DNA of 31,723 bases from an uncultured Thermomicrobiales bacterium (lineage in GTDB: Bacteria; Chloroflexota; Chloroflexia; Thermomicrobiales; UBA6265). The stretch is taken from the NCBI GenBank assembly GCA_902806365.1, contig CADCWJ010000488.1, positions 1 through 31,723 of the forward strand. Direction: 5' to 3'. Made by a program: the position numbers and the translations under genes. Under the pieces are notes generated by a model. It did not search any database and had not been told where the DNA came from. It saw only the letters and a list, made by a program, of their open reading frames with translations. This document shows positions 1,888 through 12,018 of this stretch, piece after piece (position 1 is the first letter of the stretch; each line of letters starts with the position of its first letter).

Positions 1888-2682
1888 ATGGACCTGGGAC
1901 TCGCTGGCAAGATCGCGATTGTCGCGGCATCGAGCAAGGGGTTGGGCAGGGCGACGGCGCTCGTGCTGGCGCGTGAGGGGGCGCTGGTCACAGTCAACGG
2001 ACGCGACAAGGAGCGGCTGGCGGAGACGGCGCAGACGATCCGCGACGAGACCGGTGGGGATGTGATCGAAGTCGTTGGCGATTTGTCGGACGCGGCCGCC
2101 GCGGCGGACCTCGTCGGTCGGACGGTGGACCAGCGGGGAGGCCTCGATATCCTCGTCTGCAACGCCGGTGGGCCGCCGCCAGGTACCTTCGCGACGTTCC
2201 CCGACGATCAACCCTGGCTCGACGCCATCAACCTCAACCTGATGAGCACGCTGCGACTGTCCCGCGCGGCCCTTCCTCATCTCGAAGCGCGGGGAGCGGG
2301 GAGTATCACCAACATCGTCTCGATCTCGGTCAAGCAGCCGATCCCGAATCTCGTGCTCTCGAACACCGCGCGGACGGCGGTGATCGGGATGGCAAAGTCG
2401 CTGGCGACCGAGGTGGCGGATAAAAACATCCGGGTCAACAGCATCTGCCCGGGGTCGATCCTCACCGACCGGATCCGCTCGATCTCGGAGATGCGGTCCC
2501 GCGAGACTGGCGAGGATGTCAATTCCATTCTGAAGGCGGAGGGCGACGCGATCCCGATGGGCCGTCACGGCACTGCCGAGGAGTTCGCCAACGTGGTCGC
2601 CTTCTTCGCCTCGCCAGCCGCATCCTATGTCACCGGCGTGACCGTCCAGGTCGATGGCGGTTCCTACAAGGGCCTGCTGTAG
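1888..2682 (+). CDS. Short-chain dehydrogenase/reductase (3-oxoacyl-ACP reductase-like subgroup)
   Basis: ASSKGLG Rossmann motif, NAGGPP, RVNSICPG and VDGG. The active-site helix reads SNTAR instead of YxxxK. ATG at 1888 follows GGAGAGAG. Confidence 0.9.
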   Translation: MDLGLAGKIAIVAASSKGLGRATALVLAREGALVTVNGRDKERLAETAQTIRDETGGDVIEVVGDLSDAAAAADLVGRTVDQRGGLDILVCNAGGPPPGTFATFPDDQPWLDAINLNLMSTLRLSRAALPHLEARGAGSITNIVSISVKQPIPNLVLSNTARTAVIGMAKSLATEVADKNIRVNSICPGSILTDRIRSISEMRSRETGEDVNSILKAEGDAIPMGRHGTAEEFANVVAFFASPAASYVTGVTVQVDGGSYKGLL

Positions 2683-2683
2683 G

Positions 2684-5518
2684 TCAGAGCTCGCCAATGT
2701 CCTCGCCGGCGGAAAGGACTCGCAACTGGCTGGAACCGTCCGTGGTCTCCTCGATCCGCCAGACCTCGTCGAACACCGCCGACGTGCGCACATCATCGAC
2801 ATGGCTGATGATGAAGAGTTGGCGGAAGTCATCGAACGAGCCGGAGAGCGTGCCGAGCAGATCGAGCAAACGGGTGCGGCGGTCGCGATCGAGCGATCCG
2901 AACACCTCGTCGAGGACGAGAAACCCCGGCGGGTTGGCTGCCTGACCGGCGATCATGCGCGACAACGCCAGCCGAGCCGCGAGCGAGATCGCATCCTGCT
3001 CGCCGCCGGAGAATCCTTCCAGGGGAAAGCGCTCCTCTTCGCCGTCGTAGACCTGGACTCCAAAGTTGTTGTCGAACTCGACGCGGTCGTACTTGCCATC
3101 GGTGACCTCGCGAACGAGCTCGCTTGTCAGATCGCCGAGAACAGGTGTGAGCCGTCCGGCGGCGTAACGCTCGAACTCGGAGAACTCACGGTACATCCGG
3201 TCGAGGAGGTCGGCATCGCGGCGGCGGCTATCCGCCCGCTCGGCAAGTTGCGTGACACGCGCCTGCTCGGCCTCGAGTGTCATCTGATGCTGTTCCGCAT
3301 CCCTCAAGGCGGTCTGGGCCGCATGATATGCCTGCTGGGAGACGCGTTCGTCCCGGCGGGTCGTCTCGACGGTCTGGATCGCCTCAGCCAGCGCGGCGGG
3401 ATCGAACCCCAGGGCGACGCGCCGCTCCCGCAGTGACTCAACGCCGGCCGTCAGCTCGACGACGCTCGCCGCCACCCGATCCCACTCCTGCAGCAACATG
3501 GGCCGGCGGGCAAGATCGTGATCTATCTGTTCCATCGTGATCTGGGCGCGGCTGGCTTCCCGGTGTCGTGCGACCGCCTCGCGGTGGATGTCTTCGTCGA
3601 ATACGGCCTCGCCGACTTCGCGCAGCTCGGCCTCGGCCTGCGATCGCACCGAGTCGATTTCGAGCAGCCGGGCCCTTGCGGCCGTCAAGGACGGCCGGGT
3701 GGAGATCATCGAGCGATACTGGACCACCATCAGGTTGGCGTCGCGGAGCGTTTGCCGGGTCGGCGGGGTTGTCGCGCCCACCGCGCCAAGCGCATGCTCG
3801 AGCGCGGCCCGCTGGCGGGCAACGATCTCCTCCTGCTCGCGGAGGTGGGTGACGCTGCCCTGGATCGAGCTTTGCACCTTCACCAACGCGGTGACTCGTG
3901 CCCCGAGTTCCGCGCGTCGGGCGGTGAGAAACTGGCTTCGCTGGATTAACTGTTCCCGCTCCCTCTCGGCGCACGTGAGCTCGGCGGTGATCGTCGCGAC
4001 CTGGGCGCGGAGCGAATCAGCGACCAGGGCGGCGTCATTTTCCGTGAACGGCCGGGCGCAGGTGGGGCAGCGATCGTCGAACTCAGCGCGTTCGAGGTTG
4101 GCGATCAGCTGCCGGGCTTGATCGCGCTGCCCTTCGAGCGTGGTCCGCCGGGCATCGAGCCCGGCGATGAGTTGCTGATCGCGCTCGCGCTCCCCTTCCA
4201 GCGTCGAAATCTCCGCGGAGGGATCACCTCCCTCGAGCAGTGCTCGCTCTTCCTCATCGAGCGCTGTGCGGCGGGTCATCCAGAGCTCGAGCTGCTCCGA
4301 CACGCGCTCCAGTTCCCGGGCAAGTTCTTGGCATTGGACGAGCGCGGATTCCCTCGCTTCGACATTGGGCAGATCCAGCACCTCGATCGCGGCGGCCAGC
4401 CGGGCGAGGGCGCTGACGGGTTGCTCGTCATCGTCCGGTTCCCAGACCCATCCGTCGACCTGGTGGACGATGTTGATGTTGAGCACCGTCGAACGCGTCG
4501 CGTCGATCGCGTCACGGCGACGCTTGTGCAATTGCCGCAGCCCGGCCGATATTTCCTGTCTCCGGTTGAACGCGGCCCGCCGCTGTTCAAGTTCGGCGAT
4601 CTCCCCGGAGAGCGCGGCAAGTGTCGCGGCGACCGGCATGAGCGCCGCCCGCTCCATTTCCCGTGCGTCAAGCCGGGTCAGCTCGGACGAGATCGCCTCG
4701 TGCCGCTGGACCGCTGCCTGGTGCGCACCGCTCCCTTCAGCGATCGCCTGCCCCAGCGCGGCATCCTGGTCCTTGGTCGCCAGAAGCGCCTCCCGTGACG
4801 CTTCCGCCGCCGCCAACCTTTCCGCAAGTTGCGCTATCGCGGAGGCCGCCGCCGCGGTTTCGGCTTCCCGTTCCCGGATGTGCGCCGTCGCCGCCGCTCG
4901 ATCGGCCGCAAAGTCCCTGCCCGATGCCTGCTCATCGTATTGCCGTGCGAGGACCTCGGCCTCATTCTGGGCACGCTTGCGATCCACCGCGATCAGCTCC
5001 TGGGCACCCCGGATCGTTTCCAGCCCGAGCAGCTTGCCAACCTCGCGCCGCCGGTCCGTGGCTCCCAGGTCGCCGAAGAAGTGCAACTCCTTCTGCCGGG
5101 TGAAGAAGGTGGCGGCGAACGCGACGTGCGACAGGCCGATCAGCTTCGTGGCAACGTGGGCGCTCACCTGCCGTGGTCCCTGGATGATGACCTGTTCGTC
5201 GCCGCACTCGTCAATCTCGTAGATGACCGCCGCCGCCGAGGCGCGTTTCAGTTCGCGCTCGACAATGAACTGGCCCTTGCCGTCCACACGCTGGAGGAGG
5301 ACCGCCACCTTCGTCAGCCCACCATGCCCTCTTGGTCGGATATCCCTGGCACTGATCGACGGAGGGCTGTAGAGACACCATTCGATCGCCTCGAACAGGG
5401 TGGTCTTGCCGACTCCGTTGGCGCCGATCACGCCGATCGTCGCACCGCCCGGTATCTCGAACTCATGATGCCCCCGGTACTGCTTGTAGTTGTCGATGGT
5501 GACCTTGGCGAGGATCAT
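2684..5518 (-). CDS. sbcC: Rad50/SbcC SMC-like ATPase, 944 aa
   Basis: Walker A GANGVGKT, long coiled coils, central zinc hook CPTC (4058-4069, residue 484), signature FSGGEQ, Walker B/D-loop FLVLDEVFGSLD and H-loop ISH. The ATG overlaps the upstream stop (ATGA). Confidence 0.95.
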   Translation of the reverse strand: MILAKVTIDNYKQYRGHHEFEIPGGATIGVIGANGVGKTTLFEAIEWCLYSPPSISARDIRPRGHGGLTKVAVLLQRVDGKGQFIVERELKRASAAAVIYEIDECGDEQVIIQGPRQVSAHVATKLIGLSHVAFAATFFTRQKELHFFGDLGATDRRREVGKLLGLETIRGAQELIAVDRKRAQNEAEVLARQYDEQASGRDFAADRAAATAHIREREAETAAAASAIAQLAERLAAAEASREALLATKDQDAALGQAIAEGSGAHQAAVQRHEAISSELTRLDAREMERAALMPVAATLAALSGEIAELEQRRAAFNRRQEISAGLRQLHKRRRDAIDATRSTVLNINIVHQVDGWVWEPDDDEQPVSALARLAAAIEVLDLPNVEARESALVQCQELARELERVSEQLELWMTRRTALDEEERALLEGGDPSAEISTLEGERERDQQLIAGLDARRTTLEGQRDQARQLIANLERAEFDDRCPTCARPFTENDAALVADSLRAQVATITAELTCAEREREQLIQRSQFLTARRAELGARVTALVKVQSSIQGSVTHLREQEEIVARQRAALEHALGAVGATTPPTRQTLRDANLMVVQYRSMISTRPSLTAARARLLEIDSVRSQAEAELREVGEAVFDEDIHREAVARHREASRAQITMEQIDHDLARRPMLLQEWDRVAASVVELTAGVESLRERRVALGFDPAALAEAIQTVETTRRDERVSQQAYHAAQTALRDAEQHQMTLEAEQARVTQLAERADSRRRDADLLDRMYREFSEFERYAAGRLTPVLGDLTSELVREVTDGKYDRVEFDNNFGVQVYDGEEERFPLEGFSGGEQDAISLAARLALSRMIAGQAANPPGFLVLDEVFGSLDRDRRTRLLDLLGTLSGSFDDFRQLFIISHVDDVRTSAVFDEVWRIEETTDGSSQLRVLSAGEDIGEL

Positions 5519-6714
5519 CCGACGTTGTCCTCTTCCGGAGTTGGAGCTTCTTGCGCCAGGGCGGCATCGACCAGCGCCCGGCCTCCCCGTTCGAGGAACA
5601 GCTGGGCGAACTCTTCGTTGAAGTGCTCGCCGGTGCGAAGCGCCACGAACTCGGTGAAGAGCGTGTGCAGATCGGCGACGCCTTCTCGCCCGAGATGCTG
5701 TTCGACCCCAGGCATAAACGCCGTTCGCTCGGCCGCCAGCGTGAATGAGAACGCGAGCGGTCCCGTCTCCCGGCCCAGAAGGCTCTCCGCTTCGCGCCGG
5801 GTCGCTCTGTCCACATCGCGCAGCTCGACGCGCGTCATGGCATGCGGTGACCCAAGCGTCGTCAATTGAGCGATCACGGCATCCGCAATATCCCGCGCGC
5901 GGAGGTTTCGGCCGTTGACGGGTTGCAGATTGATCATCGGGCGGGCGGGGATCTCGATGTGCTCGACCGCGACAGGCTCACCCGGAGCCCCCATCGTCAC
6001 GATCGCATACCCCGGATTCGCATCGTGATCGCCCCAGCCGAAACGCTCGGTCGAACCGCTGTACCAGGCCTTGCCGGCCGCCTGGGTAAAAACGTGATAA
6101 TGCCCGAGCGCGATGTAATCGAACGCCGGGTCGAGCAGCGCCCCGGTCAATTGCTGCTCACCGGGCTCGCTGTGGATACCGGGTGCCAGGATCCCTGGCA
6201 CCATTCCGTGGCAGACGAGGATGTTCCGACGGTCCGGCGCGACCTGCGAAAGCACTGGATCGGGATTCGTCAGGGCGCCATGCGGAATAGCGTGGACGTG
6301 AAGGTCGAGATGCCTGAACAAGTCCGTTTCGTGCGTGTCGGTGTACTCGGCGACGAATCGGACGTCGGACAGGGCGAGTTCGATCACGCTGTACGCCGAC
6401 CCTCCGGTCCGGATACGGGGAGTGTCGTGGTTCCCGGCGATTACCAGCGTGGGGATCCCGGCCCGCTCGACACGACGCATCTGGCGGATGAAGTGTCGCA
6501 TCGATTGCCAGGTCGGGCGGGCATGGTGGAAGACGTCGCCACCGTGGATCACGGCGTCCACCCGGCGGGTCAGGATGTCATCGATCGTTCGCTCGAAGGC
6601 GCGGTCGACATCGACCGAGCGCTGGTTGCGGCCGGTGTCCGGATCGGCCTTGTTCAGGGCCCGGTAGCCAAGATGGGTGTCGGAGAGATGGGCGATCCGG
6701 ATCCGTTCGCTCAC
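5515..6714 (-). CDS. sbcD: Mre11/SbcD metallophosphoesterase nuclease, 399 aa
   Basis: All five phosphoesterase motifs are present: DTHLG, GGDVFH, GNHD, CHG, GHYH. GTG at 6714 overlaps the herA stop (GTGA) and has GGAG upstream. Confidence 0.93.
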   Translation of the reverse strand: MSERIRIAHLSDTHLGYRALNKADPDTGRNQRSVDVDRAFERTIDDILTRRVDAVIHGGDVFHHARPTWQSMRHFIRQMRRVERAGIPTLVIAGNHDTPRIRTGGSAYSVIELALSDVRFVAEYTDTHETDLFRHLDLHVHAIPHGALTNPDPVLSQVAPDRRNILVCHGMVPGILAPGIHSEPGEQQLTGALLDPAFDYIALGHYHVFTQAAGKAWYSGSTERFGWGDHDANPGYAIVTMGAPGEPVAVEHIEIPARPMINLQPVNGRNLRARDIADAVIAQLTTLGSPHAMTRVELRDVDRATRREAESLLGRETGPLAFSFTLAAERTAFMPGVEQHLGREGVADLHTLFTEFVALRTGEHFNEEFAQLFLERGGRALVDAALAQEAPTPEEDNVG

Positions 6715-8906
6715 GTCCGGCTCCACAAGTCGCGTGCCGAGTTGAGCATCTTCTGGGTGTTGCGCCATGGGTCGCCATGACCGTTGGACGACGTACCGTA
6801 GATGCTTTCGATCTTGCGGCGCGTGTCATCGACGGCTTCGGGCTCGATCCCGTCGGCGAGGTTGCGAACATCCGCCAGGGCGGGAGCGCGATCGCCCATC
6901 AGCTTCTTAAGCGTGCGGTGAAGGGCATCCGCCGGGTCGCGCCGGGCGGCTTCGGACCCGAAAATACGCTGCCCGTAGACGCCGGGCAAGGTAGGCGGAT
7001 GCGGGAATGTCCCGAATAGTGGTGCCCGGAAGTGAGCGTGCCGCACCAGTAATCGACCCTTGGGCAGGCCCAGCAACTCCTGCTTTGCGGTCTCCGAGAT
7101 CGAGCGGTAGGCGGCGTTGATGATCTCCTCGTCGCCGACCCGTCCGTAGAACGATGTGCCGCAGTTGCCCAGGATCTCGCCATCCACCTTGGAGCGGAAT
7201 TGCTGGGCCCCGAGCAGTACCACATTGAGGTGACGCCCGCGGGCGGCGATATCCACCAGCGTGTCGCGGAGCCCTCCGTCGCCACCGGATGGTGCGTACT
7301 TGTTAAGCTCGTCGACGAACACGATCAGCTTGTCGACGCCCATCTCGCTGCGCTCGGCGAGCCGCCAGATTGTGTTGATCGTGGAGGTTACGATCAACTC
7401 CTGGGCGGTGGTGTTGCAATTCGAGATATCCACGACGCGAAGCTCGTGATTCGCGAAAGGGTGATCGACTCTCGGCTCGCTGCCAAAGTCGACCCCGCCC
7501 TCCGCCAGCAATCCACCCAGCTTGTCCTTGAGCCCCTTGAAGCGGTTCTGCGCCTTGCGGATCGTCGCCTTGTGGTGGCCATGCCAGTTGTCGGCCCGTT
7601 CATCGTTGGCGAAATGGGCGTTGATCTCGGCGAACTTTTCATTGAGAGCGGCCAGCGAGTCGATCTTCATCTCCCGCAGCTCGTAGATGAAGCCCCACAT
7701 CTTGTCGTCGAGATCGCTGAAATCGAAGACTTTGTGCGGAAAGGTGAGCGCGGTCTTGAGGGACCACAGGATTGGAAAGACGCGGTCCGTCTCTCCCGGC
7801 GCCTGCCGCGCCGTATTGAGCGCCTTGTGATCGCTAAACCCGTCGAGCCGGGCCGAGCCATTGATCGGCTGGGGGTCCATCCCCGGTCGGAAGGGCGCGA
7901 ACACCCGTGTTCCGTCGAACGGCTCGGGGCGCACCCCGAGCGACTCGTACGCCTTCAGGTCATCCGGTCCCAGGCCCTTCCAGTCGGCGGCCCGGTACGC
8001 GCTTTCGTGAACCGGGTCGGGCTGCGCTGGCTTGTCGAGCCAGAGCAGGTCCGGCCCCTTGACGTTGAACATGATCGCGGCAACCGATTTCTGCTCCCGC
8101 TCCATCGTCTGGAAGACCGAGCCGATCAGGAAGAGGGCGTGGCTCGTTTTCGTCGCCAGTCCCGATTGACCGGTCCAATTGGCGTGCCCCGCCTCCGGGC
8201 CGAGCAAATAGTCCTCATCGAGAAACAGCGGGGTCCGCTGGAACCGGGGACGCCCCGCATCATCGAGGAGAATCTCGCCGTCGTCGTCGCGCTCGTAGTT
8301 GCCGTTGGTGTGCATCAGCGCCGGAATCCCGGCCCCGGTGAAGTTGTGCGTGCCCAGCGCGAAGCGAATCGCGGTCTCGTTCGCGAAAAAGACCGGGCCG
8401 TTGACGGCCGGTCGGTGCGACTGCACGTCGTCGCGCAGGTGCCGCGTGGCGAGCACCTTGACGGTGAAGACCAGAATCTCTGGCCGCACGGTCGGGGCGC
8501 TCTGCGAAAGCGCGTGCTCCATGTGGCGATCGAAATAGTCGTCCAGGAATGACCGCAGATCGGAATAACGGCGTGGCTCGTCGACCACGCCGATTACCGC
8601 CGCCTGCTCCGAGAAGGCGACCACGATGTGTCCCACGTCGAGTGTTTGGGCGTCATCGCCCGCCCAGAAGAAGAACTCGTGCGAACCGGCGGGCTCCCGT
8701 TCGCTGCTCACGACACGGCCGATCACCCCCGTGTCGCGGTCGATCAGGTTCTGGAACGCTTCGTGATCCCAGGCCAGCGATGCCCGCTCCCCGGTATCGA
8801 CCGTGTCCTGCACCGGATCGAGGGGCACCTGTCCCGTCTCCATCGGCACGTGTTCTCGTTCAAGGCGGGCGAAGCCCGGTAGGGAAATGGATTCCCGCGT
8901 GGTCAT
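6711..8906 (-). CDS. herA: HerA (FtsK/HerA family) DNA translocase, 731 aa
   Basis: N-terminal HAS-barrel-like segment, variant Walker A GQSGLATKT, Walker B IVFVDELNKYAP and RGRHLNVVLLGAQQ. ATG at 8906 overlaps the nurA stop (ATGA). Confidence 0.9.
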   Translation of the reverse strand: MTTRESISLPGFARLEREHVPMETGQVPLDPVQDTVDTGERASLAWDHEAFQNLIDRDTGVIGRVVSSEREPAGSHEFFFWAGDDAQTLDVGHIVVAFSEQAAVIGVVDEPRRYSDLRSFLDDYFDRHMEHALSQSAPTVRPEILVFTVKVLATRHLRDDVQSHRPAVNGPVFFANETAIRFALGTHNFTGAGIPALMHTNGNYERDDDGEILLDDAGRPRFQRTPLFLDEDYLLGPEAGHANWTGQSGLATKTSHALFLIGSVFQTMEREQKSVAAIMFNVKGPDLLWLDKPAQPDPVHESAYRAADWKGLGPDDLKAYESLGVRPEPFDGTRVFAPFRPGMDPQPINGSARLDGFSDHKALNTARQAPGETDRVFPILWSLKTALTFPHKVFDFSDLDDKMWGFIYELREMKIDSLAALNEKFAEINAHFANDERADNWHGHHKATIRKAQNRFKGLKDKLGGLLAEGGVDFGSEPRVDHPFANHELRVVDISNCNTTAQELIVTSTINTIWRLAERSEMGVDKLIVFVDELNKYAPSGGDGGLRDTLVDIAARGRHLNVVLLGAQQFRSKVDGEILGNCGTSFYGRVGDEEIINAAYRSISETAKQELLGLPKGRLLVRHAHFRAPLFGTFPHPPTLPGVYGQRIFGSEAARRDPADALHRTLKKLMGDRAPALADVRNLADGIEPEAVDDTRRKIESIYGTSSNGHGDPWRNTQKMLNSARDLWSRT

Positions 8907-10030
8907 GACGGCCATCCAGCGGTGAGGGAGGCGAGGTGACGCTTCAGGATCAATTCGAGGTAATGGATCGGATAGAGCAGTGTCGGCCAGCGCGGGTCGT
9001 TCCGTGCTCGCGGAATCCGCTCGGCCAGCAACCAACCGGAGATCTCGTCGATCTGTTCCGTGGTGCAGACCTCGTGGGCAGCTTCGACGCGGACCAGCGA
9101 ATGCCGGGCGTCCATCCCCGAGGCATCCCACAGCCGCATGTACCACATCGTTCGTCCCTCCGACACCGTGCCCGCTTCATCGGAGGTGTCGGTATTGCTG
9201 ACATAGCGGAAGGCGGTCGTCCGGTGCCCTTGGGGCAGGTTGAACAAGGTCTCGGCCTCGTCGCCGACGAGATGTTGCGTCTGGAGATCCTTGACCAGCC
9301 CGACGGCATTCGGGACATTTTCGGAAAGCCGGCCATCGACGGCGATCCAGGCGTCGGAAGCGAGGGGCGAGATGTCGCGCCTCCAGTGGGTGAGAAGATG
9401 ATCCTCCTGTTCCGCTCGGAGCCGGTTGGCGAGATCCCGGGAATTATAGACAAGCTTTCCGTAATGACCGGCGAGGAACTCGTAATGCTCGAAGCGTCGT
9501 CCGTGCCGGTCGTACAGGGGATCGTGGAGATCCCCGAAGTGATTCAGGATCTCCGCGAGGCGTTTCAGGTCGGGTCGACCAGTTTCAAGGGGGAAGATCC
9601 AGGATTGTTTCGACCCGAACGTCTCGCCGGCGAGCCAGGGCGCCCCGGCGTCGTCGCGTTCGAGAATGCCCACAGCGCTGAGCCCGACCACGATCGGGAC
9701 CAACCCGATCCGCCAGACCGGCAGCGTCTGCTGGCTGCCATCGAGAAAGTAGCGGAACCGCGAGGCTCCGGGCATGGCCTGCGCCACGGCCCGCGCGGCG
9801 ATCCGGCCCTCGATCCGCTCGATCGTCAATGGCCAAACGCTTGGAAGCCGGCTGGGATCTTCGATAACGCCGCCTCCGCCGATCCCAAGCTCCAGCGACC
9901 CTGATCGGCTCATATCGTTGGCGCCGATCCGTTCGCGATCGAGCATGCCTTGAATCCGGCCCACGTTGGTTTTCAGGGTCGGAGTCATGGCGGTGCTTGA
10001 AAAGTCCTGCGGTTGGGGAACGGCGTGCAT
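8903..10030 (-). CDS. nurA: NurA-family nuclease (RNase H fold), about 361-375 aa
   Basis: Motifs YFLDGSQ, IAVDGRL, GLVKD, YMRL, RVE and the C-terminal LYPIHYLE..LK match NurA spacing, and the gene is coupled to herA. Start is uncertain: ATG 10030 or ATG 9988. Confidence 0.78.
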   Translation of the reverse strand: MHAVPQPQDFSSTAMTPTLKTNVGRIQGMLDRERIGANDMSRSGSLELGIGGGGVIEDPSRLPSVWPLTIERIEGRIAARAVAQAMPGASRFRYFLDGSQQTLPVWRIGLVPIVVGLSAVGILERDDAGAPWLAGETFGSKQSWIFPLETGRPDLKRLAEILNHFGDLHDPLYDRHGRRFEHYEFLAGHYGKLVYNSRDLANRLRAEQEDHLLTHWRRDISPLASDAWIAVDGRLSENVPNAVGLVKDLQTQHLVGDEAETLFNLPQGHRTTAFRYVSNTDTSDEAGTVSEGRTMWYMRLWDASGMDARHSLVRVEAAHEVCTTEQIDEISGWLLAERIPRARNDPRWPTLLYPIHYLELILKRHLASLTAGWPS

Positions 10031-10060
10031 CACGGAAACCCGATTCGTTTGGCCGGAAGG

Positions 10061-10074
10061 CGAACACCTGTGCT
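10061..10074 (-). promoter_or_regulatory. Candidate LexA (GAAC-N4-GTTC type) operator upstream of nurA
   Basis: CGAAC-ACCT-GTGCT has one mismatch in the core. It lies 8 nt downstream of a minus-strand TATACT -10-like hexamer (10082-10087). Confidence 0.4.
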
Positions 10075-10294
10075 GACGCGGAGTATAGCGGAGAGGTGGA
10101 GCAATATTCCGGTGCCGGCGACGTTGGGAGACCACCGGCTTCGGCCGGGAATTCACGGATGTTGGAACCATGCCGGAACCGGAACTCACCTTGCCGACCG
10201 ACACAAAACACCGGCTGACCAGCGAATCGGTCGACTGGGCCCGCATATCACACGCGGGACTCCAACAGCTTCCGGTACGTGCCGCCTATGTACG

Positions 10295-10303
10295 TACACT
10301 ATA
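10295..10303. promoter_or_regulatory. Overlapping divergent -10-like hexamers
   Basis: TACACT on + (10295-10300) and TATAGT on - (10298-10303) sit in an AT-rich palindromic island. No clear -35 was found. Confidence 0.35.
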
Positions 10304-10366
10304 GGTTGAGTCCCTTGCTCGCGTCAATCGAGGTTTCGAGGCCGGAACCGGAATAGCGGAGAGAAG

Positions 10367-10426
10367 GTGGTACGGTTCACTCTCCGTGCGACTTCGCCCG
10401 CTCGGCGGCGATCCCTTCCGCCGTGA
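10367..10426 (+). CDS. Putative 19-aa Arg-rich leader peptide (MVRFTLRATSPARRRSLPP) upstream of argH
   Basis: GTG is preceded by GGAGAG. There are 5 Arg codons, including CGG CGG CGA, and the stop is TGA at 10424-10426. The ORF overlaps alternative hairpins. Confidence 0.35.
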   Translation: MVRFTLRATSPARRRSLPP

Positions 10427-10509
10427 AAACCACCAACGGCCCGACGCGAGAACCGTGAACCGGTAGCAACGAGCGGCGCGATATCGACGCAAAGGAGACG
10501 TTCTCGAGC

Positions 10510-12018
<1,509 letters not shown>

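Follow-up and report, generated by a model that had tools for sequence, protein, structure and literature searches.

A vertically inherited nurA-herA-mre11-rad50 operon of Thermomicrobiales with a probable role in processing DNA ends

Introduction

Does a run of four bacterial genes for NurA, HerA, Mre11 and Rad50 encode an archaeal-type machine for the resection of DNA ends, and does it stand in for RecBCD or AddAB? This question is raised by contig CADCWJ010000488.1 from the metagenome-assembled genome (MAG) of an uncultured bacterium; its positions 1 to 31,723 (in nucleotides, nt) are called the window below. An initial annotation of the window had described the four genes as an archaeal-type set, had proposed that they make a stoichiometric four-subunit machine that may replace RecBCD/AddAB, and had ranked a role in defence against phages below a role in repair. 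Here we describe the operon, its relatives and its upstream region. In our judgement it rather likely serves the processing of DNA double-strand ends, as a chromosomal operon that is inherited vertically and probably repressed by LexA.

Results

Layout of the operon

The open reading frame (ORF) listing of the window places nurA, herA, mre11 and rad50, in this order and in the same orientation, on the minus strand (Table 1). Direct reading of the sequence revealed a stop/start overlap of 4 nt at all three junctions: ATGA (8906..8903) between nurA and herA, GTGA (6714..6711) between herA and mre11, and ATGA (5518..5515) between mre11 and rad50. The ORFs, the junctions and the motifs described below agree with what the initial annotation had reported for these genes. 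The herA-mre11 and mre11-rad50 overlaps were present, at the same length, in nearly all related loci from Thermomicrobiales, and because they recur in this manner the four-gene arrangement is not a product of chance. The mre11-rad50 overlap was likewise retained in Rubrobacter. The genes for NurA, HerA, Mre11/SbcD and Rad50/SbcC thus make up a single, tightly coupled operon.

Longer forms of two of the genes were considered and rejected. A nurA ORF starting at 10246 would exceed the length of most homologs (360-380 amino acids, aa), whose alignments begin at about residue 10-18 of the 375-aa form, and its added 5' part reads as non-coding sequence. Similarly, a herA ORF starting at 9146 is not supported by the relatives of HerA, which align from about residue 30-50.

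Identity of NurA and HerA

Neither the NurA nor the HerA product had a Pfam match even at E<=10, and searches of both with NCBIfam and PADLOC models returned nothing usable. Since Pfam gives nothing for either protein, their identity rests on sequence and fold matches to entries of the PDB. With phmmer, NurA matched the Deinococcus radiodurans NurA (7f6d_H) at 5.7e-6. An AlphaFold2 model of the protein (pLDDT 87.5) found the same nuclease (7f6d_G, 1.6e-11) and the Thermotoga protein TM1739 (1zup, 3e-9) in a Foldseek search, and comparison by VIA gave Z values of 17.9 for Deinococcus NurA (7f6d_G), 17.2 for TM1739 (1zup) and 13.6 for Sulfolobus NurA (2ygk). Foldseek, VIA and the alignment of homologs agree on an RNase-H-like, toroid-forming nuclease fold with two acidic DG motifs, FLDGSQ (D97) and AVDGRL (D232), and both aspartates are invariant in 59 homologs, of which three touch PF09376. 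By sequence and predicted fold the product of 8903-10030 is NurA, and in this respect the initial assignment withstood the structural comparison. Named homologs in the protein search were all labelled hypothetical, save one with a truncated UniRef label beginning with 'Nur'.

HerA matched its Deinococcus counterpart (7f6d_B) at 1.2e-34 in the phmmer search, and residues 59-646 of the AlphaFold2 model (pLDDT 83.6) could be superimposed by VIA on the Deinococcus enzyme with Z 32.2 and 29% identity; the value for Sulfolobus HerA (4d2i) was Z 28.1. The protein has an N-terminal HAS barrel and a RecA-like ATPase of the FtsK/HerA type with P-loop (GQSGLATKTS), Walker B (VFVDELNKY) and arginine finger, as well as the motif AQQFRS; P-loop, Walker B and RGR are invariant across 38 sequences. 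The P-loop is of an unusual form, which Deinococcus HerA shares (GISGVATKTS, hence G-x-S-G-x-A-T-K-T-S in both). The archaeal HerA equivalog of NCBIfam, in contrast, scored only E 0.14 (10.6 bits, cut-off 970), and Thermococcus HerA reached 0.003 in the PDB sequence search. These values do not bear out the label 'archaeal-type'.

A helical tail of about 85 residues (residues ~650-731, window 6711-6956) at the C-terminus of HerA is without counterpart in the solved Deinococcus structure. It occurs, weakly conserved, in the orthologs from Thermomicrobiales, Rubrobacter and Gemmatimonadales. The idea that the tail serves as a dock for Mre11-Rad50 was weakened by this poor conservation and by a tail-less HerA of 566 aa, which in other Gemmatimonadales still clusters with sbcD-sbcC-nurA (see below).

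Identity of Mre11 and Rad50

Mre11 was recognised by Pfam (Metallophos, 3.8e-14) and by the Mre11 and SbcD models of NCBIfam at 1e-25 to 2e-18, all of them far below the equivalog cut-off. Its closest PDB sequences were Thermotoga and archaeal Mre11 proteins (2e-13 to 1e-12), followed by E. coli SbcD at 5e-7. All five motifs of a calcineurin-like phosphoesterase (DTH, GD, GNHD, H and GHYH) were found, at residues 10-16, 58-63, 94-97, 167-170 and 204-207.

Rad50 matched the Pfam families SMC_N, AAA_23, SbcC_Walker_B and Rad50_zn_hook, the last one below threshold (20.5 against 24.3 bits), and the NCBIfam Rad50 model PRK03918 aligned with it from end to end (1.3e-35, far below the equivalog cut-off). 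Among PDB sequences the Rad50 heads of Pyrococcus, Thermotoga and Methanocaldococcus scored around 1e-15 (6e-16). The split ABC head is complete, with Walker A (GANGVGKTT), Q-loop, signature (FSGGEQ), Walker B (LVLDEVF) and H-loop (IISH). The zinc hook CPTC is located at residues 484-487 of 944, in the middle of the coiled coil, and the motif occupies the coiled-coil midpoint in all of 51 full-length orthologs. The operon Rad50 is the sole protein of the MAG with a match to SbcC_Walker_B, hence its sole Rad50/SbcC-type protein.

Distribution and inheritance

The closest relatives assign the contig to Thermomicrobiales (Chloroflexota). In a survey of the 80 best related loci the order nurA-herA-mre11-rad50 was found again in Thermomicrobiales, in Rubrobacteraceae (Actinomycetota) and in some Gemmatimonadales, that is, in three phyla, and nurA and herA were neighbours in most related loci that extend upstream of herA. 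A HerA ortholog is present in 43/44 genomes of the Thermomicrobiales family to which the window belongs (f1) and in 5/5 of a second family (f4), together 48/49, whereas the other three families of the order gave 0/3, 0/12 and 1/31, the single positive being a weak match. Rubrobacterales had it in 50 of 53 genomes. These counts include three unpublished genomes (G075 in family f1, G135 and G136 in Rubrobacterales), without which they are 42/43 for f1 and 48/51 for Rubrobacterales. HerA is mostly single-copy in these families and orders. It was also detected in 22 of 81 sampled Gemmatimonadales genomes, about eight of which carry close orthologs. Entire families and orders thus have the operon as a fixed trait, and the novelty initially attributed to it in this lineage has to be reduced correspondingly.

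Trees of HerA and Rad50 were compared for 46 shared rows (45 loci and the window). They are congruent, the window has the same nearest neighbours in both, and in both the Gemmatimonadota, Actinomycetota and Thermomicrobiales sets are each split off by a branch with support 100. The flanks of the operon consist of housekeeping genes, as the initial annotation had noted, and are syntenic in relatives from Thermomicrobiales: a divergent argH lies upstream in about 18 loci of this order, with two genes of the alpha-amylase family beyond it, and an SDR and a glycosyltransferase gene lie downstream. Neither mobile nor defence genes were found as neighbours in the scanned part of the window (1-21549). 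Taking prevalence, congruent trees and syntenic flanks together, the operon is an old, vertically retained part of the core genome rather than a mobile island.

Variants of the arrangement were also observed. The nurA-herA and mre11-rad50 halves are apart in loci L014, L016, L021, L037 and L066 (the range across relatives is 9 to 52 kb), and the Rubrobacter loci (L023-L035 and L050, Rubrobacteraceae) often have herA and mre11 spaced by an additional 0.7-4.7 kb of DNA. A different four-gene cluster, in the order herA-sbcD-sbcC-nurA, which is that of the Sulfolobus operon, was found in the Gemmatimonadales genome G211 (L112:9858-16748). It encodes a HerA of 566 aa with a weak HAS-barrel match, an SbcD of 398 aa (SbcD_C), an SbcC of 987 aa and a NurA of 371 aa; this NurA passes the Pfam NurA model, and the HerA is only about 27% identical to that of the window. 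L113-L115 are further loci of this kind, the four-gene order being confirmed only in L112, and HerA matches of the L112 type (33-35% identity to the query) were obtained in about 13 of the 81 sampled Gemmatimonadales.

The upstream region

Upstream of nurA there is a LexA-type (Cheo-like) box, AGCACAGGTGTTCG, which deviates at two positions from the Cheo-type consensus. The consensus is matched perfectly at the lexA gene of the MAG itself, where the box CGAACATGCGTTCG is situated between TTGACA and TATACT. Although the window copy alone is not significant, the position of the box recurs: in 17 of 21 loci from Thermomicrobiales, counting the window, a site that matches GAAC-N4-GTTC at 7-8/8 positions precedes nurA by 24-79 nt, and the conserved box often reads TAGCAC-N4-GTTCG. 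Because of this recurrence the box is a candidate LexA operator, and probably a genuine one; expression of the operon is probably induced by DNA damage. Elsewhere in the MAG, two tandem Cheo-type LexA boxes, GAGAACATGCGTTCGT and CGAACAGCGGTTCG, occur at C779:2820-2870, where they probably mark another SOS gene.

A second, more distal promoter-like site (Table 1) is the only sigma-70-like match in 2300-10600 and could serve either nurA or the divergent argH. The palindrome that it abuts, TGTACGTACA, is present in 18 copies in the 3.37 Mb MAG against about one expected (e.g. C732:17904 and C517:10094). Nearly all copies are intergenic, often beside a TATAG-like -10 sequence, and the genes near them include those for amidase+SH3, glucosaminidase+SH3 and LysM+C39-like proteins, FtsK, an AraC regulator, MnmA and a 2-hydroxyacid dehydrogenase. 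The sequence GTACGTAC sits upstream of nurA in loci L005, L008 and L012. The possibility that the palindrome is an SOS operator was rejected: its neighbours are cell-wall hydrolases and the like, and it stands upstream of nurA in only three relatives. It resembles an operator, perhaps one for a regulon of cell-wall or division genes, and does not look like part of an SOS set. In the 5' region 10031-10295 no Rfam family of structured RNA was found, and folding was unremarkable (z -1.2).

Table 1. Positions of the operon genes and of the upstream signals in the window
Feature	Position	Strand	Size	Remarks
nurA	8903..10030	-	375 aa	RNase-H-like 5'-3' nuclease, NurA of the bacterial (Deinococcus/Thermotoga TM1739) type
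herA	6711..8906	-	731 aa	HAS barrel and FtsK/HerA-type hexameric translocase ATPase; extra C-terminal helical tail
mre11/sbcD	5515..6714	-	399 aa	GTG start; Mn-dependent phosphoesterase nuclease
rad50/sbcC	2684..5518	-	944 aa	ABC-type ATPase with long coiled coil; CPTC zinc hook (codons 4058-4069)
LexA-type (Cheo-like) box AGCACAGGTGTTCG	10061..10074	-		31-44 nt upstream of the nurA ATG; probable operator
Candidate -10 hexamer TATACT	10082..10087	-		7 nt before the box; also present at lexA; no convincing -35; putative
Distal promoter-like site TTGACG-18-TATAGT	10289..10327	-		abuts palindrome TGTACGTACA (10289-10298)

Other genes for end resection

The suggestion that the operon may replace RecBCD/AddAB was examined in the MAG (G000; 897 contigs, 90.7% complete) and in related genomes. 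In the MAG the RecB model matched just two ORFs (797 and 691 aa), both UvrD-like, the RecC model had no match, and PDDEXK_1 identified only a stand-alone nuclease of 451 aa and the N-terminal part of a large helicase of the SF1 (AAA_11/AAA_12) type; thus, with these three models, no RecB, RecC or AddAB/AdnAB-type gene was found. RecJ is present. These absences are weak evidence, since the MAG is fragmented and even recA was not found in it; its lexA is split over two contig ends (C788:2298-2507 and C719:24-422).

For the comparison between genomes, ORFs of about 930-1250 aa with a PDDEXK_1 match, which often come in pairs, were taken as AddAB/AdnAB-like. Such genes occur in 3/49 genomes of the two HerA-positive families versus approximately 24/46 of the HerA-negative ones, and none was found in the complete genome of Rubrobacter marinus. 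A strict either/or relationship was rejected: the three genomes, from the same family as the window, and one Gemmatimonadales HerA carrier have both systems, and both are missing from many genomes of the order. The negative association between HerA and AddAB is real, yet it reflects very few independent events and has exceptions in both directions. As a replacement for RecBCD/AddAB the operon is suggestive only, and the initial wording was too strong.

The large SF1 helicase represents another type of protein. The gene at C118:290-4189 (L089) combines an N-terminal PD-(D/E)XK nuclease signature with a C-terminal AAA_11/AAA_12 helicase in a Dna2-like layout; its 5' end is interrupted by a TAG at the contig edge. 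Homologs of 1250-1610 aa occur in many genomes of the order, in HerA-positive and HerA-negative families. This type of protein is a further candidate end-processing enzyme.

Discussion

A proposed role in processing double-strand ends

The operon encodes two known sub-complexes, an SbcCD-like Mre11-Rad50 with a zinc hook and a HerA translocase of the Deinococcus type paired with the nuclease NurA. Judging from characterised homologs (PMC9960219, PMC3326311, PMC2288612), an Mre11 dimer together with a hook-bridged Rad50 dimer would recognise, tether and clean DNA ends, acting on blocked or hairpin ends and performing short 3'-5' trimming. A hexamer of HerA, to whose HAS-barrel face a NurA dimer is bound, would then drive the duplex through NurA in long-range resection and leave a 3' tail for RecA; such a HerA6-NurA2 complex with ATP-driven resection is predicted by homology to 7F6D. 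Co-translation through the overlapping codons and damage-induced transcription would supply both sub-complexes together. Least certain is the last step: in this lineage, for which the searches yielded no RecBCD/AddAB/AdnAB, the operon may, next to RecJ, be one of the main routes of resection. The stoichiometric four-subunit machine of the initial annotation goes beyond this scheme: overlapping codons indicate co-translation, not a single holoenzyme, and the two halves are separate in some relatives.

Several observations weigh against the proposed role. The phenotypes of nurA-herA mutants of Deinococcus are mild, and it is RecJ, not SbcCD, to which a link has been proposed there (PMC4663267). 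Inactivation of nurA/herA in Thermus reportedly raises ultraviolet resistance, to go by the title of Fujii 2018 as cited in PMC13748450. The LexA-type box of the window, considered by itself, is not above chance (35 matches in the window versus 28.8 expected), and nurA-herA is separated from mre11-rad50 by 52 kb in G098 and by about 9.5 kb in G107. The missing recA and the fragmented state of the MAG have been mentioned above. Finally, pairs of HerA with a nuclease are often defensive, and one such pair, TdpAB, is structurally close to the window proteins (Z 13 for NurA, Z 20.8 for HerA).

Part of this evidence would fit two independent modules that share a transcript with no hand-off between them: SbcCD would cleave hairpins, palindromes and protein-blocked ends, whereas NurA-HerA would serve another DNA transaction, for instance the processing of forks or, as has been proposed in Deinococcus, work together with RecJ. 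The separation of the halves in some relatives, the DNA inserted between herA and mre11 in Rubrobacter, the unlinked Deinococcus pairs with RecJ binding to HerA (PMC4663267) and the presence of RecJ in the MAG all speak for such an arrangement. Nevertheless we regard it as unlikely. Linkage has been retained in three phyla, with overlapping codons in Thermomicrobiales, the HerA and Rad50 trees are congruent, and archaeal Mre11 binds HerA (PMC2288612). Moreover, the differently ordered cluster of Gemmatimonadales with its distant HerA shows that the four genes have joined, or stayed joined, repeatedly.

A system against phages or plasmids, in which HerA-NurA and a Rad50-like sensor of free ends destroy invading linear DNA, would be in line with the many defensive HerA-effector pairs among the PDB neighbours (Sir2-HerA, DUF4297-HerA, TdpAB), with weak PADLOC matches (mad8 to HerA at 1.8e-6, LmuB and mad3 to Rad50) and with a 2026 review that assigns bacterial NurA-HerA mainly to defence (PMC13748450), but it is quite improbable here, considering that HerA is near-universal and mostly single-copy where defence systems are patchy, that the Thermomicrobiales position between argH and sugar/lipid genes is fixed and has neither mobile nor defence neighbours in 1-21549, that the phylogeny is vertical and congruent and a LexA-type box is present, and that the PADLOC matches reflect generic ATPase similarity with no match at the level of a system. 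The low rank that defence had been given initially was thus justified.

Beyond the processing of double-strand ends as outlined above, a stronger version can be formulated, which we put forward as a tentative possibility that is rather less probable than its opposite: in Rubrobacterales and the two Thermomicrobiales families the LexA-controlled operon would be the primary resection machine for double-strand breaks in place of AddAB/RecBCD, with the two sub-complexes physically coupled. If true, this would answer whether SbcCD and NurA-HerA are connected in bacteria. Rubrobacterales and both families are typical of dry, irradiated soils, and a substitution of AddAB/RecBCD in desiccation-tolerant lineages would bear on extreme tolerance to DNA damage. 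Regardless of this version, a conserved operon with overlapping codons, which has its HerA fixed in the Rubrobacterales and in two families of Thermomicrobiales and which in Thermomicrobiales probably bears a LexA-type site, provides a genomic argument for cooperation of the sub-complexes in bacteria, and Rubrobacter offers culturable carriers. The locus also exposes an annotation gap, Pfam being blind to these NurA and HerA proteins.

Comparison with known systems

The closest solved relative of both NurA and HerA is the Deinococcus radiodurans pair (PDB 7F6D, 7WRW, 7WRX; PMC9960219). In both organisms nurA and herA are adjacent and co-oriented. The pair is joined here to mre11-rad50 in a single operon, whereas Deinococcus keeps the two pairs unlinked (PMC4663267), and the link of SbcCD to HerA-NurA was described there as still to be uncovered (PMC4663267). 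HerA is also longer in the window (731 versus 618 aa), with a disordered N-terminus of about 50 residues in addition to its helical tail.

With SbcCD and the Thermotoga Mre11-Rad50 (PDB 2Q8U, 3QF7, 6S6V) the operon has in common the phosphoesterase motifs, the ABC head, a coiled coil bearing a CxxC hook, and genes that are adjacent and overlap. The window proteins are nearer to Thermotoga and archaeal Mre11/Rad50 than to E. coli SbcCD (SbcD 5e-7; SbcC without match at E<=0.001), and the difference from SbcCD is that the genes share an operon with a helicase-nuclease pair. The HerA-containing defence systems Sir2-HerA/Nezha (8J4U), DUF4297-HerA (9C1M) and TdpAB (8WET) share the hexameric ATPase fold of HerA (Z 19.5-22.6), and in TdpAB the partner TdpB is NurA-like (Z 13.0 to NurA; HerA Z 20.8). 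They differ from the operon described here, which has no Sir2, DUF4297 or phosphorothioate-sensing context and shows a core-genome distribution and housekeeping synteny.

The same four functions are clustered in the archaeal operons of Sulfolobales and Thermococcales. A published description of a bacterial four-gene operon was not found in our literature search, although older papers might mention bacterial clusters, and the 2026 review denies such synteny in bacteria (PMC13748450). The NurA fold (Z 13.6, 2ygk) and the HerA fold (Z 28.1, 4d2i) are common to the archaeal and the window proteins, and the best NCBIfam scores of Mre11 and Rad50 are those with archaeal models. In sequence, on the other hand, NurA and HerA are only remotely related to the archaeal proteins (E 0.14 for the archaeal HerA model, and no Pfam match for either NurA or HerA). 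The orders found in archaeal thermophiles, herA-mre11-rad50-nurA or nurA-rad50-mre11-herA (Constantinesco 2002/2004 as cited in PMC13748450), are different from nurA-herA-mre11-rad50, the bacterial phyla form well-supported branches of their own in the HerA and Rad50 trees, and the host is a mesophile-type soil bacterium with a LexA-type box instead of archaeal regulation. Neither orthology to the archaeal HerA/NurA lineages nor an archaeal gene order was found, the closest proteins being those of Deinococcus and Thermotoga. NurA and HerA are members of the Deinococcus/Thermotoga lineage, which is bacterial, and 'archaeal-type' is true of function and fold but not of membership. The operon is a real, well-preserved and poorly annotated bacterial case of a known type of DNA-end-processing system.

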